Shown here piece by piece: positions 13,056 through 53,680 of a stretch of DNA of 64,000 nt. The notes beneath the pieces were generated by a model. It did no database searches. It saw nothing but the letters and a program-made list of their open reading frames with translations, and was not told where the DNA came from. Every line of letters starts with the position of its first letter. The stretch's first letter is position 1. Position numbers and translations under genes: made by a program. Origin of the DNA: Mobula hypostoma (taxonomy: Eukaryota); contig NC_086097.1 of the NCBI RefSeq assembly GCF_963921235.1, positions 152,894,001 through 152,958,000 of the forward strand. The letters run 5' to 3'.

Positions 13056-13331
13056 GAAAGCAGTGCTGTGACATTATCACATGCATATCTGTTGATGGAA
13101 AGTGTTGTGGTCTCCAGGGGTTTGCAAGTGGAAGTGACTGCACCAGTACTGTGATGCATGCTGTACACTCCAGTAACACCACATTTTTATCAGAATCACA
13201 ATTAGGTTTTTGTAAGCATATGTCATGAAACGTGAGCAACAGGAGTTCTGCAGATGCTGGAAATTCAAGCAACACACATCAAAGTTGCTGGTGAACGCAG
13301 CAGGCCAGGCAGCATCTGTAGGAAGAGGTAC

Positions 13332-13367
13332 AGTCGACGTTTCAGGCCGAGACCCTTCGTCAGGACT
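13332..13367 (-). ncRNA. Minimal type I hammerhead ribozyme motif (Penelope-associated)
   Basis: Minus strand reads AGTC-CTGACGA-AGGGTCTCGGCCT-GAAAC-GTC-GACT: CUGANGA and GAAA cores, stem I AGTC/GACT, stem II, and a short palindromic ACGT stem III. Confidence 0.75.
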
Positions 13368-15587: not shown

Positions 15588-15879
15588 GGCCCCACGTCCC
15601 CCTCGTACCCCATCTGTTACTTATTTTTATGCACACATTCTTTCTCTCACTCTCCTTTTTCTCCCTCTGTCCCTCTGAATATACCTCTTGCCCATCCTCT
15701 GGGTACCCCCCCCCGTCTTTCTTCCCGAACCTCCTGTCCCATGATCCTCTCGTATCCCCTTTTGCCAATCACCTGTCCAGCTCTTGGCTCTATCCCTCCC
15801 CCTCCTGTCTTCTCCTATCATTTTGGATCTCCCCCTCCCCCTCCAACTTTCAAATCCCTTACTCACTCTTCCTTCAGTT

Positions 15880-15915
15880 AGTCCTGACGAAGGGTCTCGG
15901 CCTGAAATGTCGACT
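15880..15915 (+). ncRNA. Minimal hammerhead ribozyme motif, second arm
   Basis: AGTC-CTGACGA-AGGGTCTCGGCCT-GAAATGTC-GACT; one C>T change in stem III. Confidence 0.65.
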
Positions 15916-16864
15916 GCACCTCTTCCTACAGATGCTGCCTGGCCTGCTGCGTTCACCAGCAACTTTGATGTGTGTTGTCATGAAACGTGTTAACTTTGTT
16001 ACAGCAGCATAATGTAATACATGATAAATATAGAAAAAACTGAATTACATTAAGTATATATATGTATATTAAATAATTAATTTAAGGTAAGTAGTGCAAA
16101 ACAGAAATTAAAAATAGTGAGGTTGTGTTCACGAGTTCAATACCCATTTAGAAATTGGATAGGAGAGTGGAAGAAGCTGTTCCTGAATTGCTGAGCATGT
16201 GCCTTCAGGCTTCTGTACCTCCTTCCTGATGGAAAGCACCAGAAATACAAGTGCTGATCAATCCAATTTCAGGTATAACTGTCTAGAATATAAAGGGCAG
16301 AAACATCTGTTATCAACCTACCCTTCATATCCACAGCTCATCTCAAAATTGTTTTTGAAAGAGTAGGTTCAGTTATATAGAAATAGTTATATAGAAAGTA
16401 CAAGGTGAAATCTATATCCTGCATGATTATAAAGGAGTTGGTGACTTGATGATCAGAGTTGCTTGAGGGAATGATTTTATTAGGACAGTGAGATGCTCTT
16501 CACTTTATTTAGTGTTGTCTTATGATCTTTAATATATGTCTGATTAGTAATCCATCCAAATCAAGATCAGTGCTCCTAATAAGTTGCATAAAATACAATG
16601 CTCTTTTCAACACTATATTAGCATATCAACCAAAGTTCCTGGTCATGTCCGTTAATTAACTCAAACTTTCTGCCATCATATGTAGTTACAAAATACATTT
16701 CCCCTTTACAGGTTGAAGGGCTCTGTTATAGTGCCCAATACTTCCTTCAATTTGAAAAACAATGAAGTGATTACATTATACAGGAGAAGGATGCTTGAAT
16801 AATTTGCTCTGTTATCAAAATGCTGAATTGTTCAGGATAACAATTATTACCTTGCTGGATTCAT

Positions 16865-19270: not shown

Positions 19271-19476
19271 CTTCCTGGGTTTATTTTTCTTCTGTGTTTC
19301 CCAAAAATCATGCTATAGTTGGAACTTAAATATTCCATTCATCAGTTCTTACTGTGTTGATTGATGCATGAATTGACAAACCAAACAAGAAGGAAAATGT
19401 AGAAGGATAAGGTACTTAAAATTTCTAAGAGAAAAAAGGATAATGTATATTTATTCTTAATGATAATAGCTGTAAG
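17032..19476 (+). repeat. 2,445-bp direct duplication, first copy
   Basis: Matches 23124-25568 at a constant offset of 6092; ORFs lying wholly within the two copies translate identically. Confidence 0.95.
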
Positions 19477-19628
19477 ACTTCCGGTAGCGCTCATGGAGTG
19501 AAGTCGCGTTCTTGACTCGCTCCATTACCTCTGAGTTTTTTCTCTCTATGGTCAGCTATACTTTAATTAACTATTAAGGCATCAATTTTTACAATACTTT
19601 GAATTAAACTGAATTCTCTGACAATTGG

Positions 19629-20528
19629 ATGGAACTTAGATCTGCTATGTCTAAGAACGGGAAAGACGGCAAGGATGGTAAACCTCCGGTTAAACCGAAA
19701 GCTACGGATCTCCCTCCGACTGAATCACCGGTGACTTTGGAAGCTATATCGGAGTTAATTCAGAGGGAAATTTCAACCTCTGTTAGGGAGATGATTCGTA
19801 CAGAAATTATGGGCTTTGTTAAAGACCTGATTCATATGGAAATCTCAACTAAGTTCCAGAAAATTGCCGATTTAATTGATAAGATGCAAACATGTATTGC
19901 GGAACATCAGTCGGCTATATCTGGTCTTCAAAAATCCGCGCAACAAAGTGAGCTTAAGATGGGGAAAGTCGAAGAAACAATTAATGTAATGAAGAAGAAA
20001 CTTGACTTTTTGACTTTTAAAAACTCTGACTTGGAATCTAGAATGCGACGGCAGAATTTACGAATGATTGGCGTCAGGGAAGCCGTGGAAGCTAACAACC
20101 CTATGAAATATTTCTCCCAACTTTTAAAAGATGCATTCCCTACTGTATTTCCTGACCAACCACCGCTACTGGATCGTGTTCACAGAATCCCATCATACTC
20201 GTCTAGGTCAGATAGACCTAGGCATGTTATCTTACGTTTTCATTACTTTCAAGATAAGGAGAGACTGTTTCGATTCGCTCGATCTAAAGGTTTCATTGAT
20301 TTTTCGGATCTTAAGTTCCGATTCGTGGAAGATTTCAGTAAACCAATCTGGGACCAACGGGTCCGTTACAGATCCGTGATGTCGGAATTCTATAAGATGG
20401 ATTTAAGACCAGCGCTGCTGTACCCTGCACGTCTAAGGATTCGCATGTTAGATGGAGCTCTTCGTTTTTTTGATTCTCCATCGGATGCCCAGAGTTATCT
20501 GGATCAACTTTCATCTTCAACATCTTAA
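19629..20528 (+). CDS. L1 ORF1p (coiled coil plus RRM/CTD, Transposase_22-like), 299 aa, uninterrupted
   Basis: DLESRMRRQNLRMIGVRE, LDRVHR, PRHVILRFHYFQDKE, FVEDFS and LLYPARLRI motifs. Confidence 0.9.
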   Translation: MELRSAMSKNGKDGKDGKPPVKPKATDLPPTESPVTLEAISELIQREISTSVREMIRTEIMGFVKDLIHMEISTKFQKIADLIDKMQTCIAEHQSAISGLQKSAQQSELKMGKVEETINVMKKKLDFLTFKNSDLESRMRRQNLRMIGVREAVEANNPMKYFSQLLKDAFPTVFPDQPPLLDRVHRIPSYSSRSDRPRHVILRFHYFQDKERLFRFARSKGFIDFSDLKFRFVEDFSKPIWDQRVRYRSVMSEFYKMDLRPALLYPARLRIRMLDGALRFFDSPSDAQSYLDQLSSSTS

Positions 20529-21248
20529 TTGCCTTTTTTTAATTTTCTCCGTTGATCGGAGGCTGTGAATTGGTTGGTTTTAACTTTTCTGTGCCCTATT
20601 TGGGCAGAAAAGTTTACTTTCGATTTCTTAATATGGCTGCTAAACTTTCTTTTTAACTGCGTCATTTCTTTCTTTTCCCAGGGGATTCTGGGTGGTTACT
20701 TCCCTTTTGTCATCTTACGTATTTCCTGTGCGGCCTTAAATTTTGTAGTTTTTTTTAAATTTTATTCTGTTTTGCTTTTTATAATCATTTTATGTTAATA
20801 ATCCTATTTTTTTTTGTTGCTGTGTCTATTCATGAGTTTGAGGTTTATTGTGGTTTTTTTTTAATATATACTTTCCGGCTTTTGTTCTGTTCTGTGTGTA
20901 TTTTAATTGAGCTAACTTTTTTTTACTTATTTTTTACTGTTTTACAATTAGCTGATCCTTTTCATATTTATACCTTTTTTTTAGGGAGCGTATACCGGAA
21001 GTCATGGGGGTAGTTTTAGCGCTTGCTTCTTTCTGGCGGGTCTGCTTTAGATTTCGCCTTGGGGTCCTGGGGTGGGGGGCGGTGGGAGGGGCTTCACGTT
21101 TTAGTTTGTTTCTCTTTGGGCTATATACATTATTGAAGTATTGGTTACGTCCTTTTCCCCGGTATCTTTTGTATGTTCTGTTTCCTCTCCGGGTCTGTGG
21201 GTCGCGCCTATTGTCAATCCTCCTTGTTATGGGTTGACTTTAGGATTT

Positions 21249-23123
21249 ATGGAGTCTATTATTAATTTTGTCTCCTGGAATACTAATGGTCTTAATCATC
21301 CTATTAAAAGGAAAAAAGTTTTTAAAGTGTTCCGGAGACTTAATGCACAAATTTTATTTTTACAAGAGACCCATGTACGGAGGGGGGACAGACTACGTTT
21401 TTTCAAATTTTGGAAGGGACAACAATTTCATTCGAACTCCAATGCTAAGATTCGAGGCGTCTCTATCTTTATAGACTCCTCAGTTACTTTTATACAACAG
21501 GATATTATCTCTGATCCGAATGGTAGATTTTTATTGGTTAGTGGTTTATTATTTAATAAAAAAGTAGTTTTGGTTAATGTTTATGCTCCTAATATGGATT
21601 GTCCGGAATTTTATAAATCATTGTTTGATCAGTTTCCGAATTTGAACGAGTTTTCATTGATTTGGGGCGGAGATCTTAATACCTGTTTATCTCCAGCTTT
21701 GGACCGTTCGGCTCCTTTACGGACTTTACCTAATAAATCTGCAAATTTGATTAATTTTTTCCTTTCTGATTCTGGGTCGACGGACATTTGGCGTTTTCTG
21801 CATCCTCAGGAAAAAGATTTTTCCTTCTTTTCACATGTTCATCATTCCTATTCAAGAATTGATTATTTTTTCATTGATTCTCGTCTCATTTCTTCAGTGA
21901 TTAAATGTGATTATGATTCTATAACCATTTCGGATCATGCTCCACTTAAGCTTTCTATTAAAATTATGGCCAATATACCAAACAATAGACAATGGCGTTT
22001 TAATTCGCTGTTGCTTCAGGACTCGGACTTTGTTAATTTTATGAATGAACAGATTGAGCTTTTTTTTACAATTAACCATACAGAAGATATTTCGGTTAAC
22101 ACTCTTTGGGACACTTTTAAAGCCTATATTCGGGGTCAGATTATTTCGTATTCCGTTGCTTTGAGGAAGAAACAGAAGCAGGAGGAGATGGTAATTGTGG
22201 ACAAGATTAAAGAAATTGATAAGAAATATGTTATGGCTCCTTCTGAGGAGCTATACAAACAAAGAACTGAACTTCAAATGGAACACAGTTTACTACTCTC
22301 GTCCTCGATTGTAAACCAATTAAAGAAAACAAGAAGTGATTTTTATGTTCACAGTGATAAAATTGGCAAGCTGCTGGCTAATCAATTGAAATCTAATTAT
22401 GTTAAATCTCAAATCAATCAGATTTATAACCAAAATGATCGATTGATATTGGATCATGTGGGGATTAATCAAACCTTTTGTGATTTTTATTCTTCTTTAT
22501 ACCAATCAGAGTCTCCTCGAGATTCTAAATATATGAATGATTTTTTAGATAAGTTAGACTTCCCTCTGATTTCACAGGATATGTCTTCTTTATTAGATAC
22601 TTCCATTACAATGGATGAGATTAAGAATGTTATTTTTTCTATGAATCTGGGGAAAGCTCCTGGCCCTGATGGGTTTACCGTTGAATTTTATAAATGTTTT
22701 GCTTCTTTATTGATTCCTTGGCTCTATAAGGTTTTTGAGGCTTCTTTGAAACTTGGTAAACTTCCGGAATCTTTTAATAGAGCATCAATTTCTTTAATAC
22801 TAAAGAAGGATAAAGACCCTGCTCAATGTGCATCTTATAGACCAATATCTTTATTAAATGTTGATTCTAAAGTTTTTTCTAAGTTATTAGCAAATAGACT
22901 AGAAAAAGTACTTCCTTCTATTATTTCGGAAGACCAAACGGGTTTTATTAAAGGTCGTTACTCTTTTTATAATATTCGTACATTGTTAAATATTGTTTAT
23001 ACTCCCTCACAAAATGTTCCTGAGTGTGTTATTTCTTTAGATGCCGAGAAAGCTTTTGATAGAGTAGAATGGCCTTATTTATTTAAGGTGCTTGAAATGT
23101 TTAATTTTAGCTTGAAATTTATA
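21249..23123 (+). CDS. L1 ORF2p N-terminal portion (APE endonuclease plus start of RT), open but truncated
   Basis: ATG at 21249; SWNTNGLN, LQETH, NVYAPN, GGDLN, SRIDYFF, SDHAP, KAPGPDGF, YRPISLLN, DQTGFIKGR and LDAEKAFD. Confidence 0.9.
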
Positions 23124-25568
23124 TCCTCTCTCCAATTCTAAGCTCATACCTTCTGAATGTTTTGCTCTCACTCCCTCTGCGCTAATCCTAAACTTACCAT
23201 CAAACCTGCAGATAAGGGGGGCACTGTAGTTATCTGGTGGACTGACCTCTACCTTGCTGAGGCTCAGCAACAACTGTCAGACACTTCTTCTTACATACCC
23301 CTCGAACATGATCCCACTAGGACGCAGCAAGCCATTGTCTCCCACATCATCACTGACCTTATTAGCTCTGGGGATCTGCATTCCACTGTCACCAACCTCA
23401 GTTCTTGCACCCCACACCTCTTGTCTCTACCTCCCACCGAAGGTCCACAATCCTACCTGCCCAGGTAGACCCAATGATTCAGCTTGTTCCTGCCCCACTG
23501 AACCCATCAGTATACCTTGACTCTGTTTTACCCCTCACTGGTTCAGTCTCTTCCTACCTACATCCATGACACCTCACATGCTTTGGATCTTTTCAATGAT
23601 TTCAAGTTCCCTGGCCCCATCATCTCATTTTCAATATGGATGTCCAGTCCCTGTACATCTCCATCCCCCAGCTGGAAGGCCTCAAAGATCTCCATTCCTT
23701 TCTGGACACCAGACCCAACCAGTTCCCCTCCTCCACCACCGCTCTTCTCCTTCTAGTGGAACTTGTCCTCACTCTCAATAATTTCTGCTTTGGCTCCTCC
23801 CACTCCCTTCAATCAAAGGTGTAGCCATGGGTACTCACATAGGTCTCAGCTATGCCTGCCTTTTTGTCGGCAGTGTAGAACAGTCTATGTTCCAAGTTTA
23901 CACTGGTGTCACTGCACCACTTTTCCTATGCTACAGCGATTACTGCATTATTGCTGATTCTTGCACCTATGCCGAGATTGTCAACTTCATCAACTTTGCC
24001 TCCAACTTCAACCCTGCCTTCAAATATACAAGGTCCATTTTTGAACACCTCCCTCCCCTTACTCAATCTCTCTGTTTCTGTCTCCAGAGACAGATTATCT
24101 GCTGATGTCTATTATAAACCCACTGATTTTCACAGCTACCTGGACTATACCTTTTCCCAACCTCTACTTGTAAAATTGTCATCTCCTTCTCTCAATTCCT
24201 CTGTCTCCACCACATCTGCTCTCAAGATGAGTCTTTACATTCCAGAAAGAAGGTGATGTATTTTTTCTTCAAAGAAAGTAACTTCCCTTCCTTCACCATC
24301 AACGCCACCTTCAGCTGCATCTCTTCCATTTCACACACATCTGCCCTCACCCCTCCTCCCGCCACCCCACCAGGGATAGGGTTCCACTTGTCCTCACCTA
24401 CCACCCCACAAGCCTCCGTGTCCAGCACATAAGTTTCCGTAACTTCCACTGTTGCCAACAGGATCCCACTATCAAGCGCATCTCCCCCCCTCCACCCCCC
24501 ACTTTCTGCTTTCCGCAGGGATCACTCCCTATGTGACTCCCTTGTCCATTCATCCCTCCCCACTGATCTTCCTCCTGGCACTTATCCTTGCAAGCAGAAC
24601 AAGTGCTACACCTGCTCCTACACCTCCTCCCTCAATGCCATTCAGGGCCCCAAACAGTCCTTTCAGGTGAGGCAACACTTCACCCGTGAGTCTGTTGGGG
24701 TTATCTACTCTATCTGGTGCCCCAGGTGTGGCCTCCAGTACATTGGTGAGACCCGACGTTGTTTGGGAGACCGATTTGCCAAGAACTTATGCTCCATTGC
24801 CAGAAAAAAATGGAATCTTTCAATGGCCACGTATTTTAATTCCACTTCCCATTCACATTCCAACATGTCAAACCATTGGTCTCCTCTACTGTCACAGTGA
24901 GGACACACTCAGGTTGGAGGAGCAACAGCTTATATTCTATCTGTATAGCCTCCAACCTGATGGCATGAACATCAATTTCTCAAACTTCTGTAACACCCCC
25001 ACCCCCCTTCACCATTCCCCATCTCTTTTCCCTCTTTTACCTTATCTCCTTGCCTCCCCATTGCCTCCCTCTGATGCTCCTCTCCCTTTTCTTTCTTCCA
25101 TAGCCTTCTGTCATCTCCTACTAGATTCCCCCTTCTCTCTTTCACCAATCAACTTCCCAACTTTTCACTTCAACCCATCCCTCCCTCCCAGTTTCATCTA
25201 TCACCCTGAGTTTCTCTCTTGTCTCCTCTCCACCTTCTAACTCTGACTCCTCATCTTTTTCTTCCAGTCCTGCTGAAGGGTCTCGGCCTGAATCATTGAC
25301 TGTACTCGTTTTCACTGATGCTGCCTGGCCTGCTGAGTTCCTGAAGCATTTTGTGTGTGTTCCTTCCTGGGTTTATTTTTCTTCTGTGTTTCCCAAAAAT
25401 CATGCTATAGTTGGAACTTAAATATTCCATTCATCAGTTCTTACTGTGTTGATTGATGCATGAATTGACAAACCAAACAAGAAGGAAAATGTAGAAGGAT
25501 AAGGTACTTAAAATTTCTAAGAGAAAAAAGGATAATGTATATTTATTCTTAATGATAATAGCTGTAAG
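23124..25568 (+). repeat. 2,445-bp direct duplication, second copy (Penelope remnant plus flank)
   Basis: Copy of 17032-19476; followed by non-L1 sequence (CTGACAGG) rather than the L1 5' end. Confidence 0.95.
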
Positions 25569-33060: not shown

Positions 33061-36000
33061 GAAACATAGAAACATAGAAAATAGGTGCAGGAGTAGGCTA
33101 TTCAGCCCTTCGAGCCTGCACCGCCATTTGTTATGATCATGGCTGATCATCCAACTCAGAACCCCGCCCCAGCCTTCCCTCCATACCCCCTGACCCCCGT
33201 AGCCACAAGGGCCATATCTAACTCCCTCTTAAACATAGCCAGTGAACTGGCCTCAACAGTTTGCTGTGGCAGAGAATTCCACAGATTCACCACTCTCTGT
33301 GTGAAGAAGTTTTTCCTAATCTCGGTCCTAAAAGGCTTCCCCTCTATCCTCAAACTGTGACCCCTCGTTCTGGACTTCCCCAACATCGGGAACAATCTTC
33401 CTGCATCTAGCCTGTCCAATCCCTTTAGGATCTTATACATTTCAATCAGATCCCCCCTCAATCTTCTAAATTCCAACGAGTACAAGCCCAATTCATCCAG
33501 TCTTTCTTCATATGAAAGTCCCGCCATCCCAGGAATCAATCTGGTGAACCTTCTTTGTACTCCCTCTATGGCAAAGATGTCTTTCCTCAGATTAGGGGAC
33601 CAAAACTGCACACAATACTCCAGGTGTGGTCTCACCAAGGCATTGTACAACTGCAGTAGTACGTCCCTGCTCCTGTACTCGAATCCTCTTGCTATAAATG
33701 CCAGCATACCATTCGCCTTTTTCACCGCCTGCTGTACCTGCATGCCCACTTTCAATGACTGGTGTATAATGACACCCAGGTCTCGTTGCACCTCCCCTTT
33801 TCCTAATCGGCCACCATTCAGATAATAATCTGTTTTCCTATTTTTGCCACCAAAGTGGATAACTTCACATTTATCCACATTAAATTGCATCTGCCATGAA
33901 TTTGCCCACTCACCCAACCTATCCAAGTCAGCCTGCATCCTCTTAGCATCCTCCTCACTGCTAACACTGCCACCCAGCTTCGTGTCATCCGCAAATTTGG
34001 AGATGCTGCATTTAATTCCCTCATCCAAGTCATTAATATATATTGTAAACAACTGGGGTCCCAGCATTGAGCCTTGCGGTACCCCACTAGTCACCGTCTG
34101 CCATTCTGAAAAGGTCCCGTTTATTCCCACTCTTTGCTTCCTGTCTGCTAACCAATTCTCCACCCACACCAATACCTTACCCCCAATACCGTGTGCTTTA
34201 AGTTTGCACACTAATCTCCTGTGTGGGACCTTGTCAAAAGCCTTTTGAAAATCCAGATATACCACATTCACTGGTTCTCCCCTATCCACTCTACTAGTTA
34301 CATCCTCAAAAAATTCTATGAGATTCGTCAGACATGATTTTCCTTTCACAAATCCATGCTGACTTTGTCCGATCATTTCACTGCTTTCCAAATGTGCTGT
34401 TATCACATCCTTGATAACTGACTCCAGCAGTTTCCCCACCACCGACGTTAGGCTAACCGGTCTATAATTCCCCGGTTTCTCTCTCCCTCCTTTTTTAAAA
34501 AGTGGGGTTACATTAGCCACCCTCCAATCCTCAGGAACTAGTCCAGAATCTAACGAGTTTTGAAAAATTATCACTAATGCATCCACTATTTCTTGGGCTA
34601 CTTCTTTAAGCACTCTAGGATGCAGACCATCTGGTCCTGGGGATTTATCTGCCTTCAATCCCTTCAATTTACCTAACACCACTTCCCTACTAACATGTAT
34701 TTCGCTCAGTTCCTCCATCCCACTGGACCCTCTGTCCCTTACTATTTCTGGAAGATTATTTATGTCCTCCTTAGTGAAGACAGAACCAAAGTAACTATTC
34801 AATTGGTCTGCCATGTCCTTGCTCCCCATAATCAATTCACCTGTTTCTGTCTGCAGGGGACCTACATTTGTCTTTACCAGTCTTTTCCTTTTTACATATC
34901 TATAAAAGCTTTTACAGTCTGTTTTTATGTTCCCTGCCAGTTTTCTCTCATAATCTTTTTTCCCCTTCCTAATTAAGCCCTTTGTCCTCCTCTGCTGAAC
35001 TCTGAATTTCTCCCAGTCCTCAGGTGAGCCACTTTCTCTGGCTAATTTGTATGCTTCTTCTTTGGAATTGATACTATCTCTAATTTCTCTTGTCAGCCAC
35101 GGGTGCACTACCTTCCTTGATTTATTCTTTTGCCAAACTGGGATGAACAATTGTTGTAGTTCATCCATGCAACCTTTAAATGCTTGCCATTGCATATCCA
35201 CCGTCAATCCTTTAAGTGTCATTTGCCAGTCTATCTTAGCTACTTCACGTCTCATACCTTCAAAGTTACCCCTCTTTACGTTCAGAACCTTTGTTTCTGA
35301 ATTAACTATGTCACTCTCCATCTTAGTGAAGAATTCCACCATATTATGGTCACTCTTACCCAAGGGGCCTTTCACGACAAGATCCCTAATTAACCCTTCC
35401 TCATTACTCAAAACCCAGTCTAGAATAGCCTGCTCTCTAGTTGGTTCCTCGACATGTTGGTTCAAAAAACCATCCCGCATACATTCCAAGAAATCCTCTT
35501 CCTCAGCACCTTTACCAATTTGGTTCACCCAGTCTACATGTAGATTGAAGTCACCCATTATAACTGCTGTTCCTTTATTGCACACGTTTCTAATTTCCTG
35601 TTTAATATCATCTCCGACCTCACTACTACTCTTAGGTGGCCTGTACACAACTCCCACCAGCGTCTTCTGCCCCTTGGTGTTACGCAGCTCTACCCATATC
35701 GATTCCACATCTTCCCGGCTTATGTCCTTCCTTTCTATTGCGTTAATCTCTTCTTTAACCAGCAACGCCACCCCACCTCCCCTTCCTTCATGTCTATCCC
35801 TCCTGAATATTGAATATCCCTGAACGTTGAGCTCCCATCCCTGGTCACCCTGGAGTCATGTCTCTGTGATCCCAACTATATCATAATCATTAATAACAAT
35901 CTGCACTTTCAATTCATCCACCTTATTACGAATGCTCCTTGCATTGACACATAAAGCCTTCAGGCGCTCTTTTACAACTCTCTTAGCCCTTATACAATTA

Positions 36001-36066: not shown

Positions 36067-37359
36067 TTAGTTATTGTAAATTGTTCCATGATTAGGCTAG
36101 GATTAAATCAGAGGATTGCTGGGCAGCATGGCTTGAAGGGCTGGAGGGCCCTATTCTGCACAGTATTTCAATAAGTGAATAAATAAGTAAGTAACTTATA
36201 GAAGCTGCACTTAAATGTATCTGCATTGCCCTTTGTGATGAATATTCACTGTCCAGGTTTGAGGGCCTTTTTGCCAAGCTTAGCTTTATAACACAACAGC
36301 AAATGGCATTTCTAGAGATTAAAGAGTTTTTTTTGAGTAAGTTAAACTTCAAACAATATTCTTTGTTCGACTTTATGTCATAAACGGGAGCCAGTCTTCA
36401 GTTCTTAATTTAAATGCAAGCAATAATCAGCCAGAAGCTAAAAGGACAGCTTTCCAAGCAAACAGCACTGTTTACGGAACACAGGATACTGGCCCACTGC
36501 ATGGGGATGATTGCAGTGTAAAACAATGTGTTTATGTTTATTGGGTTTGTTTGAAACCAGCCAATACTGGATACATTATTTAGCTCAAGAAAGCTTGCAG
36601 ACTAGATTGATACTACTACTTAGCAGATCAAATAGCTGATCTATTGATGGTTTAAAGGTTTGTGCGCTTAGGGAGTCAGTAATCACAGTATTAATTGTGG
36701 GTATCTGAGAAATCTGTACCCAAAAGCCTTTAGACCATCTGTAGGAAAAGGTAATTGAAAAGATACGCATGTCAGCAAAGTCACCCAAGTGGCAAAAAAT
36801 GGTATAAGTGTGAGAGAGCTATCAGGCTTGTTAGGAATGGTCTAGGAACATCAAGATGAATGACAGAAAGATGGGGCAAACTAGAATCTATTCCTCTGCC
36901 TTCAATTTCTGCGATGGATGACTCAGTCATCTGAAACTCAGTATGTCTTTTTAGCATAGGAATTGTATCTGTCTTTTGGAAACCCTATGTGCTTTAGAAA
37001 TTATCTGTAATTTGGATATCTTTTATAATATAGAAAACCTCTGAGTTTTAAGTTGTTGGCCAGAAAAAATGACAGTCTACAGATCAGTGAATTTAAATGA
37101 ATCAAGGACAGTGGAAGCAGACAGATAAGTTGTCTTTGTTCTTGCCTCATGCTTGGGGATGGAGGCTGCCATTTTGTGAAGACACTCTGTTCTCCTCTTT
37201 GTGAGCTTGACAGGCTGGGCTTGATCAACGTTTTAAAGAAAGACACATTGATACTTCAGGTAATCTGTTGGACTGGAGATCATTTCCAAATAAAAAGTTA
37301 TTTATGAGATGTTCTTTGGTTAGATATAACATGCAGGTTTGTGAATGTTGGGGTTGGTG

Positions 37360-38071
37360 GATTGGAGTGATGATAGCAATAGCGACTCCTTAGATAACAT
37401 GTTTGGAAACAGCTCTATTTCCATCTTTAATATCTTTATTTTTCCCTTTCAGGGTTTTTTGAAGACCCTGACCTGGAGTTACACCCTGACTATGGTTCTT
37501 TGCAGGAATGGGCACGGCCTAAGAGTCCAGCTCAGATTTGGAAGCCTAGGATCTTGGGGCTCTATAGACAGGCAGATCGAGGGTCGGTGTCATGACAGCT
37601 GACCCATGTGTCGTTGGGGGAGTTGGAATATCTGCAGTTGTGTGCCTAGTTTTTTGGGTACACAGCTCGAAAAAAGAGTTGTTAGTTATGTCTCCCCGCT
37701 TTCTGGGAAAATGGAGACAACTTTTTCTCTCTTATTAGGGAAACTGAGAAAACCTGTAGTATGTCAATTACCAGGTGAAAGGTGAAATCTTTGGGGCAAG
37801 TGCAAGTCTGTGTCTTTGCTGCTGCTTTGCTTGAGTACTTGGTGGCAGGTGCTGATGCTTTTCTTTTGCCGTTGGGAGAAGGGGGGATTGTTGCTTGTTG
37901 CCACTTACGCGTGGGAGGGGGAAGTTGGGGGGGTACTTTAGGGTTCAAACATTTGACTGTCGTTCATTCTTTGAGACACTCCCCTGTTTTCATGGATGGT
38001 TGTGAAGAAAAAGCATTTCAGGATGTATATTGTATAAATTTCTCTGACATTAAATTGTACCTTTGAAACTT
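37360..38071 (+). mobile_element. Short non-autonomous retroposon inserted in the 5' LTR
   Basis: Absent from the 3' LTR; 6-bp TSD TTGGTG (37354-37359, 38072-38077); ends ATTAAATTGTACCTTTGAAACTTT. Confidence 0.8.
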
Positions 38072-38492
38072 TTGGTGCCTGCCTGGAGTGATTCGACCTC
38101 ATTGCAGATTGAGAACAAAGAGCCATAAATTATCAGCTGTCACTTGATGGGAAGAGGGCAATAAATGGATGCTGGCTTGGGAGCAGAGACAGTAACAATG
38201 TGTTAGAGGACAGATGCATGACCTGTGACCAATAACCCTGGAATGCAATATTTGAATTGATAAGGAATGGATATAAAAGTGGATGCTTCGTGTGTACAGT
38301 GGAAACTTTGAGGAATAGCCATCACAGGTACGAGTGTGAGCAACCCTGTATCAAACACGTGGCAAATGAATGGGGTTAACTAGGAACGTCTGGCCAGCAT
38401 TAACTCCTTTGCCCAGGTAACATCTTTGCTATTCTTTGGCTATTCAGGAGAGTCAGGGATACCTCGTGAGTGTGCACGCAAGTTACTTCGTG

Positions 38493-38726
38493 GATGTCAG
38501 GCTTAAGTTTTTTACGCAGAGAGTGGTGAGTGTGTGGAATGGGCTGCCGCAACCGTGGTGGAGGTGGATACAATAGGGTCTTTTAAGAGACTCCTGGATA
38601 GGTACATAAAGCTTAGAAAAATAGCGGGCTATGGGTAACCCTAGGTAATTTCTAAAGTACGCACATGTTTGGCACAGCATTGTGGGCCAAAGTGCCTGTA
38701 TTGTGCTGTAGGTTTTCTGTGTTTCT
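38493..38726 (+). mobile_element. CR1 3' fragment inserted in the 5' LTR
   Basis: Closely matches 53457-53680; absent from the 3' LTR. Confidence 0.85.
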
Positions 38727-38847
38727 GTGTATGAATTCACACACTCGTTAGTTTAAACAATAAAGGTATCCTGTACTTGTCGGGAAATACAGATCTCTCT
38801 GTGCCTCACTAATCAGCGTTATAAAAAGTTCTTTTTAACAACAGAAT

Positions 38848-38865
38848 TGGCGTCCCTGTTGTGAG
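38848..38865 (+). promoter_or_regulatory. Primer binding site, tRNA-Asn-like
   Basis: TGGCGTCCCTG starts 4 nt after the 5' LTR and is complementary to the 3' end of vertebrate tRNA-Asn(GTT) (...CAGGGACGCCA); the rest is diverged. Confidence 0.7.
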
Positions 38866-38912
38866 CTCAATCGGGGGACTGGGTAGCTACTTGTAGTTAG
38901 CACTGACCCAGG

Positions 38913-40346
38913 TTGAAGAATTCAGGGAGTTCTGTAAGTCTGAAGTACTTGGATTATTTTGATTGGAGGGGATTCCTCCAGAAGTACATATTGGGGAAAT
39001 GGCCACAATACGGGAAGTATGTTGGACACACCAGCGATGAAGGCGGCAACGCTTTTTTAAAAATTGCCAAAGGGAAATTGTCAGACAAGGAATTTAAGCG
39101 ACTACTGAAGCCAGTGCAGTCGTCTGCCTGATTAAGGAGTAAATAGGAAATCGGCAAAAAGCTGACGCCGAGCGAGATAAGTTAGAAGACGAAAACAGAA
39201 GACTCCAAAAGGAGTTAGAAATCCTCAAGGGAAATGTTACAGATTTACAGGGACAAAGAAGTATGGATTTGATGCCTATGAATCTATTTCAGCTGAAATG
39301 TGAGAAATTGGTTGAAGAACAAAGTAAACGGGAAGAAGAAGCTGATTTAGCCAAAAGCCCGGCGGAGGAATAAAAGAAACAGTGCAGTGATTTAAAAACA
39401 GCTTTGAATGTGATACAGAAATCAGTTTCTGAAAAGAGGAGTAATACTAGTGATCAGACAAAGTGTTTAAAGCAGATACAACAGCTGCAGGACCAACTTG
39501 CTGCACAGAGAGGAATAATATGTGCTTTTGAATCTGAAAGAGGGGAGGAGAGTGAATATGTAGATATCGATTGGAATGATTTAGCAGAAGATGCAACTAG
39601 ATATGGCTGTGATAATGACAAAGTGCTTTTTCCTGAGTATCCTCCACCCGCATACAATGCTAAGGAATCATCAGTGCCAACGGCACCACTGGCCCTCCTA
39701 GTTACTGTTTGAGAGGGAGGGAGGAACTGGGGCAGGAAATCAAAAGCAGAATATAACATACAGTACTCCATCTGGTGTACAGCAGCTGAGAGATATTGCC
39801 AATGATATCAAGATTCGTGCGTTCGGAGATGACCCTCGGGAATTGTTTCAAGCAACTAGTCATCAGAGAATAATACACTGCCTAGATGACGCCGAGAAAA
39901 GGAAATTGATTATAATGTGTTTATATCGAAACATACACTTGGCTTTGCCAGACAACAACAATGTGGGGAACAAATGAGCATGGGAAAAGGAGACATAACA
40001 GCCAAATAAACCAGCTAATGTGAAAGTGCTGCCTGTTGTGGGTAAGGCAACTGCCCGGAGAAATGAGAGTAGCGGACCCTCCCCAAATGTCACCCCACCA
40101 CATTGTCAAGTGACCAGGAAAACCAGAGGAGATGAAACAGTGTGGAGAACAGGGAGACTTGGAGGTGGAGTATTTAAATGCTATAACTGTGGTCAAGAGG
40201 GACACATCAAGAGAGAATGTCCAAACCTGAGAAGTGGGAGAGTAGAGCAAGGAGGTTTGAACTTGGAGGGGGCAGATAGAACAGGCCCACAAAACAATGT
40301 GGTGGACAAATTGCCATCTAGGGGATTGTACCCCGAGCTTCAATGA
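38913..40346 (+). pseudogene. gag: gag (frameshifted; capsid region apparently partly deleted)
   Basis: Coiled-coil stretch, PEYPPPAY late-domain-like motif, and CCHC knuckle CYNCGQEGHIKREC. Confidence 0.75.
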
Positions 40347-43300
40347 TGGTGTCAGGCCTCACCAACGTGGGTGTGTGACACAAGGTGGGACAAGACTGGA
40401 AGACCTCTAGTGAATGGTAGGGTTAAAGGCTGCCAGGTTACCTTCTTATGGGGCACTGGAGGATCGTGAATGACCATCAACTTGACTAATGTAACTAACG
40501 CAAATTGGGAAATACAAGGTAAAATTATCTTAAGTGCATTTACAGGACATTCACAAGTGGGTCATGTGAATGCACCCTTAGAAGTTAGAATAGGAGACAT
40601 GGCATTAGAGCATTCTATAGTGCTAGTTGAATTACTCCGGGAGCAGGAACATATACTAAGAATTGATTACATGGCCAGAGCGGGGCTTTGTTTTGACTCA
40701 GTTAACTGTATGATTTAGTGAATGTGAACTGGTATGAATGACATATGCCACAAACAGATCCCAGTAGGTGAATATCAGGATAGAATATGCACAATAGCTG
40801 AAATGTGAATAAAACCAGAGGAGATGAGCAACGATCACACATAGAGTACATCGTTGCGCAGAATTCAGGGGCATTTGCACGGTACAAGCATGACTGCAGA
40901 AAGATGGCCAGCATCATACAAGGTCCAGACCCAAACCACAGGAGCAATATGGGTTTCCAAAAAAGCTGAGGAAGATGTGCGTAAGGTAATACAAGGTTTG
41001 ATACAACATGGGGTACAGAGGACAGTAGCCTCCACTAATAACTCACCTATATGGCCAGTAAGGAAACCAGATGGTAGTTGGAGGTTGACAATAGACTATC
41101 GAGAGCTGAATAAAGTAAACCCGTTAACAGCCCCAACTGTAGCAACTAACCCAGAAACAATGGTCATACAGAATGAAAGAGCGCAATGGTTCACAGTTTT
41201 AGACATAAATAATGGATTTTGGTCTATCCTAGAGAAAGAGAGAGTCAATCAAGTTTGCATTTACGTTTCGGGGAGAGCAGTATATGCGGACTGCCCTAGC
41301 ACAGGGGTTCCATAAATTCCCATCTATGTTTCACCAGCATTTAGGGGAAGGGTTAAAATGGTTTTTAAAGCCTGAGTGCTTGGTCCAATATGTAGATGCA
41401 GACTGCAGACTCCTGCAGACTGAAACTAAGCAGGAACATTATCAGCTATTGACAGAACTGCTGCAATTACTACCTAAAGGTAAATCCTAAAAAAACACAA
41501 GTGATGAAACAAGGAGTTAGTTATTTGGGAATGACCTTGACACAGGGAAGAAGAGAAATTGAAAAACGAAGGGTAGAATCGGTTATGAAACTGCCTATTT
41601 CCCAAGATGTGAAAGGGCTGAAGTCCTTTCTGAGGTTGGTAGGATACAGTAGGGATCACATTGATGGATTTTACACAAAGGCAGTTCCTTTAATGGAGTT
41701 ACTGAAAAAGATTGTGGCGTGGGAATGGAAATCAGAACACACCCAGCCATCACAGACCTGAAGCAAGCATTGGTCACTGCACATGCTTTAAAAACCCCAA
41801 ATTCAAATGAGCCATTCTCATTGGAGGTGGCCACAACTGATACCATCCTCTCAACAATGCTGTCACAGGAGACACATGGAATGTTAAGACCAGTAGCATA
41901 TGCTTCACGCATGCTGCCACCAGTAGAACAGGTGTATACTGTGTGTGAAAAACACTTGTTAGCGGTTTTCTGGGTGTACAAAATTTTGCCTACATAATGG
42001 GATTTAATCCACTTACAATACTGACAGAATGTACCCCTATAAGATTATTGTTAGATGGAAGGATTAAAGATGGCTCAGTAAGCCAAAAAACAGAATTGCT
42101 AGATGAACATTGCTGTTGCAAGGGAGAAATATAACTGTAAAACAAATGAGTATGACCTCTATGTTAGCTGACAGCCTGGTGTACCAAAATGGTAAACTTG
42201 AGTGTCAGGTTATGATAGCAAATGATTCCAAGGGACCATTTGTATCTAAACAAAAAGGAGGGGATAGAAGCAGATGAGACAAAGTAATGCTTGAGAACAA
42301 AGACACAAAGGAGAAGGGAAAACCCTATTTTAAAATTTTTGTAGATGGCTCCTCATCAGTATAGAGGAGACTGGAATATAGAGGAAGAACATGGCCAAGA
42401 AAGATATAGTATAGCTTTAAAGTTACCTAAAGCCATGAGTGCACAGGTAGCGGAATTGGCAGCTGTAGCATACGTGATTAGCCACCCAAAATGTTTTCCA
42501 CCTGGATGGGTCATACACTCTGATAGTATGTTCATTTATAATAGCCTTACAGAACATTGGCCTCTGTGGGAAGCCAGAGGATTTGTTGACCGAAAGCCCC
42601 ACTCATCTGTTGTTCTGTTGAGATATGTATTTGAAGAAGCAAAGGGGAAAAAATATGGAGTTGTAAAGGTGAAAGCCCACTCTAAATCGACCCCTAAGGG
42701 GAATAGGAAGGCTGATGAATTAGCGAAGCAAGGTACTTTAAAAGGGCAGGAAAGGCAGCCACAGATTGGGGAGAAGGGAAGACAGAAGGAAAAAAAGGTT
42801 AAGGTCATAGATTTAACTGAGGAGCAGAAGAAAGATAAAGAATTAGAAAAAAAATAATAGAAGGAGTAGAGTCAAAAATGTATAAAGAGCACAAGGGTAT
42901 ATGTGTTAAAGATGGAGTAGTCCTATATGAAGGAAAGTTTGTGGTCCCAGAAGGAGGAAGAAATCAGATTATCTACTGATACCATGATTTATGGGGACAC
43001 CAAGAAGCTGAAAGCACCCTAGAAAAAATAAAGGAGGTGTGTTGGTGGCCTAGGGTGAAGGACGATGTGGAACATTATGTCAAGAATTGTTTGATTTGTG
43101 CACAATATAATCCTGACAGAAAGGTAAAGAAAGGAGCCCTTCAACATACCAGACTGGTGGAAGGGTCTTGGACTAATTTGCAGAGCGATTATGTTGGACT
43201 CTTGCCACCTACCCCAGGAGGGTATAGCTATATTCTTATAGTAGTAGATACTTTCACCAAGTGGGTGGAAGCTTTTCCAACTAAGACTAACACGGCCAAA

Positions 43301-43990
43301 GCCACTGCAAAAATCTTATTGGAAAGGACTTTTACTGGCTGGGGATTACCTCAGAGTATAGAGTCAGATCAAAGCACACATTTTACAGCTCAGATAATGC
43401 AAGATGTCATAACACTTTTAGGGATTAAGCAGAGATTTCATATACCCTATAGACCACAGTCTAGTGGAATTGTGGAAAGGATGAACCGAATATTAAAAAA
43501 TTTTGATGGCCAAAATGGTGCAACAACATGGAACAACTTGGCAAGTAGTTTTGCCTTATGTACTGATGATGATAAGGAATACAGTGGCATCATTAACGGG
43601 TTATAGTCCTCATAAGCTCATGACCGGAAGAAACATGAGAGGGTTAGAGGGGTTGTTTGGATTTGACTTGTCAGAACCTGAAATTGATGGGATTAAGTCA
43701 GAAAAGTGGGTACAACAGTTGGTAGAGACAGTGAAAGAGGTCAATTATGTGGCAGCCCATCAAACAGGAAAGAAGAAGCAGCAGATTAAAGCCTACTTTG
43801 ACTCAAAAGTCTGTCCCACAGAATTAAGCCCAGGGCAACGTGGTGATTAGAATACACCAACCCACCTCATTTTGAAATCCAAGGTTTGTAGGGCCCTATG
43901 AAATCATAGACAAAGCAAGTCCATCAGTATACAGGGTACTAATTTCTCCAGATAAAAATGGATGGTACCACGTCAACCAGTTGAAATTGG
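40347..43990 (+). pseudogene. pol: pol: protease, RT, tether RNase H, second RNase H, integrase with GPY/F tail
   Basis: FLWGTGG (DTG>GTG); NSPIWPVRKPDGSWRLTIDYRELNK; LAQGFH; LVQYVD; RPVAYASRML..CEKHLLAV; FVDGS..SAQVAELAAV..HSDS..KVKAH..GNRKADELAK; CLIC..DYVGLLP..VDTFTKWVEAFP..SDQSTHF..PQSSGIVERMN; FVGPYEI. Confidence 0.92.
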
Positions 43991-44404
43991 TGGGGGAGAA
44001 ACAGGGAAATTATCATCATCGGCACGAAACAGTTGATGTGCATGATAGTCCCAATTTTGGAGACCTGACAATCGATGTAGTTCTGATTTGGAAGATCTGA
44101 GTTTGGGACAGATTTTCCGAGAAGATGGCAACAGATCTGACCAAGGAAGAGATTATCCATTTTCTCAGTCTGAAAATTAGGTGAGTTTTGTGAAGAAAAT
44201 AAAGAGAAGAAGAAATACACTGGTTCCCCTATCCTGAAATGAAACTGGGTGAGAAAAGATGGAGGTTTGAGTCCAAAGACAATCGTGAGCCTAGATTGGA
44301 TGGGTTAGAAAAACAGATAGAAAATATGGATTTAAAGTAAATGAAGATTGGAACCGGAAATAAGAACAGATATTACCCTTGTGTGTTTACAGATTTAATT
44401 CAAC

Positions 44405-46050
44405 ATGAAGAGAATAATATGTTTTATTGTGGTGAAATTGACCATGACTGGGGCCATGATTGGTTGTACTTCAGCAACATTACTGCAGATGAACATGTCA
44501 AGAATGACTTTGCTATATGAAGACCACTCGGTGATCAAAAACAATTTTTCTCAATGGACACAGGTAACATGGGCACACATGTGGAAGAAACAGAAGACTC
44601 GAATTTGTATTATGCTGGGGTAGATGGCTTGATGTGTATGGATAAAACATTAAAATTCGAGAGGATACAAAGGTACAATTCCCATGTAATAAAATTTTAA
44701 AGGTGACATTGTTTAGTAACCCAGAGGGGATAATCATCAGTCAGTTTTTAGACCCAATTATTGAAGAGTCTTCAGGTGATGATGGCCACAGTAAGATTCC
44801 AGTTCTGTGGGATCACACTCATGTGAATATTGAGTGGGGTAGTGATGTACACAAGAGATATATCAATTGGTGTGGCCACATCAAACGTTTCTCAAAAGTT
44901 GTTTCTATTGTTATAAACTGTCCACAGGAGGATGTAGTACACAGGGAGAGTAGAATGGAAGGGACACCAAGGGACACGGGAAAGAGTTTCTGTCAGGACC
45001 TAAATCCTTTCAGGGTTTTCAAATCTAATAGGAAATTGATCACTCCACAACCCCAATTAACCAAAACTACACAAGAGCCTAAATGAAGTGAGACTCAACA
45101 TAATACAAATGAGATAGGATTAGTGTTAGAAGATACAGGGGAATTTGTCACTTTGGTACCAGCATGTGCAGGTAATTTTTAATTTAACTGAAACAATAGT
45201 GACTGAATGGTGCTCATCTACAACAAAACAATTATTGTCGTCGAGGGGGAAACTACTGATCTTGCCCAGAAGAAATGACGAGACAGAAACCTTTGGATTG
45301 TGGTTTCAATACTTATGAGAGTTGTTCGTTGTCTATTTTGCCTGCGAAGAATGATTCTTTTCTGCATATGCACTGGTGAGAAGAACATATTATATAGCAA
45401 CATCAGCCATGAGTTATACCAAGGGATGGAAAGAGTGTCCTTTGGAAAGTCACAATGTTGCAATTGGGGATGTGACTCTAAATTTGACTATTGGAGGAAA
45501 CTTTGCCTCAATCAGAGATGGAGGAGGTGGTGAAGGAGAATCTAGCAATCCAATGAAGTGGTACACATTGATATTTGTGGGACTGTGTTGTTACTGAGTT
45601 GCCACCGATTGCTCATTTGACTGCAGACCAGACACGAGTTGTGGAGGAGGTAAAGGAGATAATTCATCATTGGACTAAACATACAAAAGTTATTGAGACA
45701 CATGCTGATAAGGCAAATTAAATATTGAAGGATTCAGACTTTCGGGAAGTTTTGAAATTGGGCATCAAATGTTCAAATATACCCATGGGTAAGAATAATC
45801 TCACATGCTGCTATAATATTAATTTTACATACACTGATAACTATATTGTTTAATGTGTATCAACTTAGAAGGTGGAAAGCTGAAATTATGCAAAAGGTAG
45901 AGGGTGATAATTTTCCAGTACTGAAAAAATGATGGCTGGTATAAAAATTGTATAAATTTAGTAAGTAAATGTAATAATGTAAGTGTAGCCCACCTGCTGG
46001 GGATCCATAACAATCCAATGGATAGTCAACAGAATAGAGGAGGATATTGA
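44405..46050 (+). pseudogene. env: env-like glycoprotein gene remnant
   Basis: Hydrophobic N-terminus (MKRIICFIVV), IGLVLEDTGE, Cys-rich CPEE..DCGFNTYESC, a heptad-like stretch, then YPWVRIISHAAIILILHTLITILF followed by RRWK (TM and stop-transfer). Splice-acceptor-like TGTGTTTACAG near 44381-44391. Confidence 0.6.
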
Positions 46051-46074
46051 TCCTTAGAAAAATATCTTTGGATC

Positions 46075-46085
46075 AAGAGGAGGGA
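46075..46085 (+). promoter_or_regulatory. Polypurine tract
   Basis: AAGAGGAGGGA just upstream of the 3' LTR start. Confidence 0.8.
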
Positions 46086-46087
46086 TA

Positions 46088-46917
46088 TGTTGGCCAGAAA
46101 GAATGACAATCTACAAATCTGTGAATTTAAATGAATCAAGGACAGTGAAAGCAGACAGACTAATTGTCTTTGTTCTTGCCGTGCACTTGGGGATGGAGGC
46201 TGCCATTTTGTGAAGTCAGTCTATTCTCCATCTTGTGCGCCTGACATGCTGGGCTTGATCAACGTTTTAAAGAAAGACACAATGATACTTCAGGTAATCT
46301 GTTGGACTGGAGATCATTTCCAAATGAGAAGTTATTTGTGAAATGTTCTTTGGTTGGATATAATATGCAGGTTTGTGAATGTTGGGGTCAGTGCCTGCCT
46401 GGAGTGTTTTGAGCTCGTTGCTGATTGAGAACAAAGGGCCATAAATTATCGACTGTCACTTGATGGGAAGAGGGCAATAAATGGATGCTGACTTGGAGCA
46501 GAGCCAATAACAAGGTGTTAAAGGGCAAATACGTGACCTGTGGCCAATGACGCTGGAATGCGATATTTGAACTGATAAGGAATGGATATAAAAGTGGATG
46601 TTTCGTGTATGCTGGCAGTGGTAACTTCGAAGAATAACCATCACAGATACAAGCGTGAGCAACCCAGCATGAAACACATGACGAGTGAATCGGAATAATG
46701 AGGAAAGCCTGGCCAGAGTAAACTCCTTTGCCCAGGTAATACCTTTTCTATTCTTTGACCATTCAGGAGAGTCAGGGATACCTAATGAGTGTGCACACAA
46801 GGTATTGAGTGTATGAATTCATGTACTTGTTAGTTTAACTAATAAAAGGTGCTTGTCAGTAAATACAGATCTCTCTATGCCTTACTAATCATCAATAAAA
46901 AGTATTGTTTTACAACA
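46088..46917 (+). repeat. 3' LTR (830 bp)
   Basis: TGTTGGCCAGAAA...TACAACA; TATAAAA near 46587 and AATAAA near 46841. Confidence 0.92.
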
Positions 46918-52275: not shown

Positions 52276-53680
52276 AGATACTTCAGTGGTTGGTAAATTG
52301 ATGGAGATACTTCAGTGATTTGTAAGTTGATGGAGATAATTCAGTGATTGGTATATTGATGAAGAAGATCCTGAGAGGCAGGATTTATGAACATTTGGAG
52401 AGGCATAATATGATTAGGAATAATCAGCATGGCTTTGCCAAAAGCAGGTCGCACCTTACAAGCCTGATTGAATTTTTTGACAATGTGACTAAACACATTG
52501 ATGAAGGTAGAGCAGTAGATGTAGTATATATGGATTTCAGCAAGGCATTTGATAAGGTACCCCATGCAAGGCTTATTGAGAAAGTAAGGAGGCATGGGAT
52601 CCAAGGGGACGTAGCTTTGTGGATCCAGAACTGGCTTGCCCACAGAAGGCAAAAAGTGGTTGTAGAGTTGTAGACAGGTCATATTTTGCGTGGAGGTTGG
52701 TGACCAGTGGTGTGCCTCAGGGATCTGTTCTGGGACCCCCACTCTTCATGATTTTTATTAATGACCTGATTGAGGAAGTGGAGGGATGGGTTAGTAAATT
52801 TGCTGATGACACAAAGGTTGGAGATGTTGTGGATAGTGTGGAGGGCTGTCAGAGGTTACAGCAAGACATCAATAGGATGCAAAACCGGGCTGAGAAGTGG
52901 CTGATGGAGTTCAATCCAGATAAGTGTGAAGTGGTTCATTTTGATAGGTCAAATATGATGGCAGAATATAGTATTAATGGTAAGACTCTGGGCAGTGTAG
53001 AAGATTAGAGGAATCTTGGGTTCGAGTCCATAGGACACTCAAAGATGCTGCGCAGGTTGACTATGTGATTAAGCAGGCATATGGTGCATTGGCCTTAATC
53101 AATTGTGGGATTGAATTTAGGAGCTGGGAGGTAATGTTACAGCTATATAGGACCCTGGTCAGACCCCACTTTAAGTACTGTTCACAGTTCTGGTCACCTC
53201 ATTACAGGAAGGACGTGGAAACCATAGAAATGTGCAGAGGAGATTTACAAGGATGTTGCCTGGATTGGGGGGCATGCCTTATGAGAATAGGTTGAGTGAA
53301 CGTGGCCTTTTCTCCTTGGAGCGACGGAGGATGAGAGGTGACCTGATAGAGATGTATAAGATTTACACGATCAATGGTCAGAGGCTTTTTCCCAGGGCTG
53401 AAATGCCTAACATGAAAGGACACAGTTTTAAGGTGCTTGGAAGTAGGTACAGTGGAGATGTCAGGGGTAAGTTTTTTACGCAGAGAGTGGTGAGTACACG
53501 GAATGGGCTGCCGGTAGTGGTGGTGGATGCGGATACGATAGGGTCTTTTAAGAGACTCCTGAATAGGTAAAAGGAGGGCTCTGGGTAACCCTTGGTAATT
53601 TCTAAAGCAAGGACATGTTAGGCACAGCTTTGTGGGCCGAAAGGCCTATATTGAGCTGTAGGTTTTCTATGTTTCTATGT
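52276..53680 (+). mobile_element. 5'-truncated CR1 LINE (RT region), second subfamily
   Basis: QHGFAK, YMDFSKAFDKVPH, GVPQGSVLGP, KFADDTK; TTCTATGTTTCTATGT tail. Confidence 0.92.

Follow-up and report, generated by a model that had tools for sequence, protein, structure and literature searches.

A degenerate Ty3/Gypsy-type tether and a retroviral-type RNase H in the pol gene of a long-dead endogenous retrovirus of Mobula hypostoma

Two RNase H-type domains lie in tandem within the window analyzed here, a 64,000-nucleotide stretch of Mobula hypostoma DNA. The initial annotation had placed them at 41800..42745, and both were recovered, a Gypsy-type domain at 41746-42200 and a second RNase H at 42338-42746. 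With a probability of roughly 0.85, they are the tether and the RNase H encoded by pol in a dead endogenous retrovirus (ERV), a member of the deep grade of SnRV/Ovex1-like ERVs (clade Huo, Xu et al. 2018).

The element is a long-dead ERV of 9.9 kb, extends from 37054 to 46917, and is bounded by LTRs. All of its features are on the forward strand. The 5’ LTR (37054..38843) and the 3’ LTR (46088..46917, about 830 bases) have TG...CA ends and were aligned blockwise. The 5’ LTR contains two nested inserts (approximately 37355-38074, and 38483-38725) without a counterpart in the 3’ LTR. Both inserts are very high-copy in the sequencing runs examined, and the second matches 53457-53680 at 82%. A primer-binding-site-like (PBS-like) sequence that starts TGGCGTCCC is located four bases after the 5’ LTR (38848..38865) and may resemble the 3’ end of tRNA-Asn. 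No tRNA gene was found within the 64-kb window. A polypurine tract (PPT) is present at 46075..46087. The flanks of the provirus, AAGT and GAGT, differ at one base and may represent a 4-base target duplication. The LTR pair with PBS and PPT, and the order of gag followed by PR-RT-tether-RNase H-IN, form a canonical ERV layout.

The gag gene (39000..40343) is broken and consists of an N-terminal coiled-coil-like part and one CCHC zinc knuckle (40179-40220; zf-CCHC in Pfam, E 5.9e-9). Matches to coiled-coil families are weak, and the comparison with the gag of the SnRV-like locus L112 is marginal (score 72 vs. 71 for the best of 100 shuffles). Except for a single TGA (40344..40346), gag and pro share one frame, giving a readthrough-type junction. 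This junction is laid out like that of the Ovex1 locus L001 (a stop, then xCQA.P), with TGA here and TAG in L001; the TGA may also be a mutation. Locus L001 (1-7322), which served as a reference, is an Ovex1-type gag-pol-env locus with open frames within a metagenome contig.

The aspartic protease (40347..40800) is broken, has Gly at the catalytic Asp position, matches Pfam weakly (E 0.03-0.04), and is collinear with P0020 (1-267). The frameshifted reverse transcriptase (RT; 40953..41746) was located by RVT_1 matches and tblastn and comprises fingers, palm, and thumb, with the YxDD motif reading YVDA (41389-41400). The tether or connection domain, a degenerate Ty3/Gypsy-type RNase H (41746..42200), is split over three frame segments, and the retroviral-type RNase H (42330..42746) has a frameshift past its first Asp. 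The integrase (IN; 42851..43990) is also frameshifted and contains an H2C2 zinc domain, a DDE core, and a GPY motif near 43890. It is followed by a heavily broken env-position region of about 1.9 kb (44030..45950). This copy is inactive because of its stops, its frameshifts, and the altered active sites of RT and protease.

The LTRs are 14% diverged (K2P 0.143 over 817 sites). At the mammalian rate given in PMC7947760, which may not be that of the host, this distance converts to about 32 million years; the rate assumed in PMC4422223 is ten times lower. No listed contig from another organism bridged the LTR-flank junction by 31 bases, and no orthologous insertion was found among them. The whole provirus interior is covered by related copies in all four sequencing runs examined, at a depth far above that of single contigs, which indicates a multi-copy family and gives no copy number. 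The sequencing runs listed for the provirus included no RNA data.

In an HMM scan, proposed in the initial annotation together with separate domain trees, both regions score on profiles of the expected kind. The first (41665-41994) matches PF17919 (RT_RNaseH_2) with 65.4 bits (E 5.3e-18) and PF17917 (RT_RNaseH) with 46.3 bits, and the second (42345-42854) matches PF00075 (RNase_H) with 50.3 bits (E 3.6e-13). In a chance control, each piece was scored on its own profile, with 59.8 bits for the tether and 56.2 bits for the RNase H. The best of 200 shuffles of each reached 5.6 and 7.1 bits, respectively, no shuffle exceeded 7.4 bits, and neither piece scored on the profile of the other. The motifs quoted earlier are all in place. 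Those of the first domain start at 41815 (FSLEVAT), 41887 (RPVAYAS), and 41944 (CEKHLLA), and those of the second at 42338 (FVDGSS), 42438 (SAQVAEL), 42516 (HSDS), 42669 (VKAH), and 42705 (RKADEL). The interval is composed of four frame segments (approximately 41746-41982, 41979-42086, 42086-42361, and 42381-42746) with in-frame stops.

The second domain had been described as keeping the D-E-D-D set. All of the acids are present, with catalytic residues D 42344, E 42453, D 42522, H 42678, and D 42714, but the frame that encodes the first Asp is not the one that encodes the remaining acids. The first domain, as had been proposed, combines a Gypsy layout with lost catalytic acids, and three of its four acidic positions are changed. 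Columns 1 to 3 read A (41830), H (41953), and E (42027); the corresponding letters are D, E, and D in all 14 Gypsy rows. Among 14 relatives, two of them poorly aligned rows, the Gypsy letter is kept in 0, 2, and 2 at these columns, respectively. The fourth Asp appears to be kept (MLADSL, D at 42170) in a by-eye alignment to the Gypsy ADxLSR motif; by eye it also seems present in P0001 and absent in P0003, P0020, and P0029. This fourth column was misaligned outside the Gypsy rows and was left uncounted in the automatic alignment. The change of three of four catalytic positions points to a functionally finished retroviral state.

The likeness of the tether to Gypsy RNase H was measured on PF17919 (cut-off 29.8 bits) and on a profile built from 14 Gypsy rows. 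On PF17919, four Gypsy rows score 103-126 bits, three lokiretrovirus rows 69-98, and 11 of 12 relatives 68-93, with an incomplete twelfth row at 41. The row that carries the name WEHV1 (P0082) scores 68.9, the MuLV-type L082 53.9, four gamma-like rows 38-54, SnRV 46.0, and the foamy L097 39.8. Gamma, epsilon, foamy, and SnRV tethers thus pass the cut-off, which makes a recognizable tether ordinary. Over a like-for-like stretch of the Gypsy profile, the window tether scores 63.5 bits. Medians on this stretch are 64 for lokiretroviruses (n=6), 57 for the relatives (n=13), 37 for gamma-type rows (n=7), 33 for other ERVs (n=18), 8 for foamy rows (n=5, with individual tethers at 4-12), and -3 for delta rows; SnRV scores 16. 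This profile is biased toward the grade, since P0003 was the query that retrieved most of its rows (13 of 14 in one search); Pfam scoring gives the same order.

The initial annotation took the recognizable tether as a sign of an intermediate state. The comparison upholds this in part, as the tether is more Gypsy-like than gamma, foamy, and SnRV tethers and matches those of lokiretroviruses. However, many retroviral tethers pass the cut-off, and the loss of catalysis is as complete here as elsewhere. Among the rows tested, only those of delta type depart from the rule that the tether is recognizable; the present one is well kept, with its catalysis completely lost. Its conservation is explained by a grade that drifted less from the retroviral ancestor rather than by activity still being lost. 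The scores suggest a gradient of tether decay from Gypsy, to lokiretroviruses and the SnRV/Ovex1-like grade, to epsilon and gamma, to SnRV and foamy, and then to delta. According to PMC7947760 and PMC9040795, lokiretroviruses and Odin elements have Ty3-like tethers (32% and 27% identity), and it is lokiretroviruses, not this element, that are already published as the Ty3-like-tether link. A literature search, which left subscription papers mostly uncovered, turned up no study of how well the tether is conserved from one SnRV-like ERV to another.

The best PDB match of the tether is the MuLV RT connection domain (E 1e-6). A structure prediction for the intact relative P0003 (mean pLDDT 80.1, pTM 0.41) has RNase H topology in both domains, and its tether keeps the full RNase H strand order to beta-5 with a short last helix (pLDDT ~56). 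The model aligns with MuLV RT (Z 31.9, rmsd 5.0, 435 aligned), foamy RT (Z 31.8, rmsd 4.0, 461 aligned), and Ty3 RT (Z 29.2, rmsd 4.5, 384 aligned).

Sharks, coelacanth, frogs, and turtle have the closest sequences, unnamed ERV pols that are collinear over the whole of pol. The provirus copy is dead, but several relatives among P0002, P0003, P0004, P0020, P0021, P0023, and P0029 are intact. The best named matches of the integrase are Scyliorhinus P0002 (63%) and Heptranchias (49%), and these matches by themselves suggest a cartilaginous fish as the probable host. The RNase H is 58-62% identical to P0001. In a separate comparison, identity to a coelacanth relative of the grade is 55%. The PR-RT-tether-RH-IN order is also found in P0003, P0020 (frogs, 24 members), P0021 (Xenopus), coelacanth proteins, and a turtle protein. 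P0002, P0004, P0020, P0021, and P0023 are retroviral pols that are publicly named ‘NYNRIN-like’ or ‘Gypsy integrase-like’; NYNRIN itself is described as Ty3/Gypsy-derived. With P0003 as the sole query, no relative was found in viral contigs, and the RNase H query found one protein among 360 candidates. The supplementary consensus sets of PMC6001957 and PMC4422223 may already contain close relatives.

Reference rows were labeled in several ways. P0045 was labeled SnRV by a by-eye match to the SnRV RT and RH rows in the supplement of PMC7947760, and P0028 and L001 were labeled Ovex1 by motifs quoted in PMC2717909. Six lokiretrovirus rows were labeled by motif against a published alignment or by tree position. 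The foamy, gamma, and delta pols are viral contigs labeled by motif, two of them also by Pfam.

Separate trees were constructed for each domain, each from one unbroken piece of the window; the RT piece is only 92 residues long. ERV-L, ERV4, fish foamy-like, Odin, beta, and lentiviral rows and the published Huo sets were not among the rows used. P0009 was omitted from the tether tree (the domain is cut in its gene model), 23 rows were omitted from the second RT tree, and the RH tree omitted the first-Asp segment of the window as well as foamy and cellular RNase H rows. Both RT and tether fall on the canonical retrovirus side. In the RT tree of 57 rows, this placement has support of 100/98. With foamy and delta rows added (44 rows), it has 97/98, and 98/98 under the mixture model. 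The tether tree gives 100/100.

Within the canonical side, the window RT lies in a deep grade with SnRV, Ovex1, and ERVs of sharks, coelacanth, frogs, and turtle, without support for the branching order. The Ovex1-side rows P0028 and P0111 are in the same grade in the RT and tether trees, and L001 falls in it as well. In the RH tree, the window groups with P0001, P0003, and P0004 (a Heptranchias protein) at 100/98. In the IN tree, it is sister to Scyliorhinus P0002 at 98/94, lokiretroviruses lie among the relatives without supported placement, and SnRV groups with class I rows. AU tests, run under LG+G4, did not reject a clade of the grade with SnRV (p-AU 0.22), which no tree recovers with support. 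The motifs SAQVAEL and G-V/I-VKVKAH are those of the SnRV row in a published RH alignment, where the lokiretrovirus rows examined are of the WKKV.GH type. The domain may be an RNase H of neither foamy nor lokiretrovirus type (group III of Wang and Han): the RH tree sets it apart from lokiretroviruses, but its best PDB match is foamy.

Four other explanations were weighed. The least probable, to which almost no weight is given, has two forms: an insertion, nested or of unrelated origin, that brought in the second RNase H, or a Ty3/Gypsy element that acquired an extra RNase H in the manner of Tat, Chronos, or Archon. The two domains are in different frames in this copy, and public names of relatives read ‘Gypsy retrotransposon integrase-like’. 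However, the intact P0003 and P0020 carry both domains in one frame with the same order and spacing, and RH, tether, RT, and IN all indicate the same relatives. The collinearity of the provirus pol with these intact relatives shows that the second domain is no nested insertion, a point on which the initial annotation could have failed. The distance from YxDD to RNase H is approximately 318 codons in the window and 298-310 residues in eight of eight references, which argues that the second domain is native. RT and tether split from the 14 Gypsy rows at 100/99, and the extra RNase H that Tat, Chronos, and Archon elements carry is described as archaeal-type. Membership in Ty3/Gypsy (Metaviridae) was rejected separately; neither a single active D-E-D-D RNase H nor an RT within Metaviridae was found. 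It is also very unlikely that the element is lokiretrovirus or Odin-like and extends that group to cartilaginous fish. Dual RNase H domains and an equally Gypsy-like tether are shared, the lokiretrovirus integrases are adjacent in the tree without a supported split, and relatives are annotated NYNRIN-like. There is also a host gap in the published lokiretrovirus screen, in which none of six cartilaginous fish genomes was positive. Nevertheless, a grouping of the window with lokiretroviruses was rejected on RT (p-AU 0.009), and the lokiretrovirus rows separate as a clade (100/96-100) in each of the RT, RH, and IN trees. The RT motif here is QGF, compared to PFG-Y in the published rows, and the RH motifs differ. 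Lokiretrovirus identity was dropped on the RT motif, the RT tree, and the AU test.

A foamy-like ERV of cartilaginous fish is improbable, if less so than the two preceding explanations. Foamy proteins head the PDB match lists for RT, RNase H, and IN, but these lists contain no chain of SnRV type, which could by itself put foamy first. The grouping of the window with foamy is not rejected on the 92-residue RT piece (AU p 0.19), and the window RT did not group with foamy rows in the two 44-row trees, from which fish foamy-like ERVs were absent. Against this explanation are the Gag zinc knuckle (spumaviruses are described as being without the finger), the in-frame gag-pro junction (gag and pol are in different frames in the foamy L097), the low foamy tether scores given above, and the identity to the coelacanth relative. 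ERV3/ERV4 was rejected as well. The zinc knuckle and GPY motif are present and there is no 5-base duplication, contrary to a published table, which lists no zinc finger, no GPF/Y motif, and a 5-base target duplication. More plausible than any of these, and still tentative, is that the grade is the earliest branch of the canonical retroviruses, below foamy, with the most ancestral tether and a lokiretrovirus-like integrase, and so a true intermediate. This is compatible with the assignment to an SnRV/Ovex1-like grade and is a stronger claim. Foamy rows group with class I and delta rows, leaving the grade outside, at 92/92, and at 97/92 under the mixture model, but a foamy-first topology is only 4.8 log-likelihood units worse and is not rejected (p-AU 0.32), and long branches lead to foamy and delta. 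In score, the tether is on a level with those of lokiretroviruses, but the Gypsy profile rows fetched with P0003 favor the grade, and on Pfam WEHV1 reaches 68.9 bits and SnRV itself 46.0. The strand order in the P0003 model is likewise in favor, qualified by the low pLDDT of its last helix. A review calls the SnRV-containing clade possibly ancestral. The completeness of the catalytic loss in the tether counts against a true intermediate.

The element shares with SnRV and clade Huo the RT and RH motifs, the tether and RNase H, the deep canonical position, and occurrence in cartilaginous fish. It also has a Gag coiled coil, a single zinc knuckle, and an in-frame gag stop, which are described SnRV traits. 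It differs from SnRV in a far better conserved tether (63.5 vs. 16 bits), an integrase that does not group with that of SnRV, and an env-position region without a match to the L112 env. Clade Huo spans all major vertebrate groups (PMC6001957), and the SnRV-like CmiERV lineage I is reported from the elephant shark (PMC4422223). With Ovex1, SpeV, and CrocERV37-39 (PMC2717909 and PMC4299795), the element shares the grade, the stop-then-xCQA.P junction, and the tether and RNase H. Ovex1 is conserved at one locus, with its frames open and without a zinc finger, whereas the provirus is broken, multi-copy, and has a zinc knuckle. Lokiretroviruses and Odin elements are alike in dual RNase H and a Ty3-like tether, but form separate RT, RH, and IN clades with other motifs; PMC7947760 and PMC9040795 describe dual RNase H for all retroviruses, lokiretroviruses, and Odin elements, so that a tether plus second RNase H is common to all. 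The RTs of MuLV and foamy virus (PDB 4MH8, 7O0H) have the same polymerase-connection-RNase H architecture with tethers further from Gypsy RNase H in sequence.

For retroviral RTs, it is established that RNase H performs template removal, PPT primer generation, and primer removal. In the live virus, gag-pro-pol would probably have been made by readthrough of one stop codon. The tether would have kept the RNase H fold without the active site and acted as a spacer that held and positioned the RNA/DNA hybrid. The downstream D-E-D-D RNase H would then have done all of the cutting in these three steps. In PMC10508981, the tether is described as retaining its fold and its ability to bind substrate and as modulating the RNase H behind it, the domain that cuts.

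The locus itself matters little, as a dual RNase H is what defines the retroviral layout and a cartilaginous fish has already yielded SnRV-like ERVs. The grade is poorly classified, and databases label its members NYNRIN-like or Gypsy-like. A basal position of the grade would matter for where Retroviridae is rooted and for whether RNase H or integrase was replaced first. In that case, the intact frog members would be the best natural model for the change from an active Gypsy RNase H to a connection domain, and the env-position gene could be a distinct envelope type.

By hydropathy, the env-position region has three hydrophobic stretches (44414, 45288, and 45789); the one at 45789 is TM-like and followed by basic residues. 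The region (44030-45950) is covered by related copies in all four sequencing runs. No significant match was found in Pfam, Atlas, PDB, or a protein search (0 of 60 candidates), one Atlas query having no match and another a best value of 0.81 to an unnamed entry. Nothing usable was found among 80 metagenome loci and reference proteins. The heavily broken region scored no higher than shuffles against the Ovex1 and L112 env, and three of its frames had no Pfam match to paramyxovirus F (PF00523). These blank searches do not show novelty. About 370 bases (44030-44400), located after the integrase and ahead of the hydrophobic stretch at 44414, consist of broken but protein-like frames, a possible env leader or accessory gene.

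Other repeats are present in the window. Blocks of 100% identity, 6092 bases apart (17032-17331 with 23124-23423, and 19164-19250 with 25256-25342), lie within 17032-25342 and surround an L1-type element with an ORF1 (19608-20525) and an endonuclease-RT ORF (21105-23138). They are either a recent duplication or an assembly artefact. On the reverse strand, an open frame of 899 residues (33159-35855) with endonuclease and RT domains is the ORF2 of a non-LTR retrotransposon. Long inverted arms of 96-98% identity at 13270-15977 (13535-14176 with 15073-15714, and neighbors) are probably two facing copies of one repeat. A 32-base tandem repeat at 637-925 has nine copies with 96% matches.
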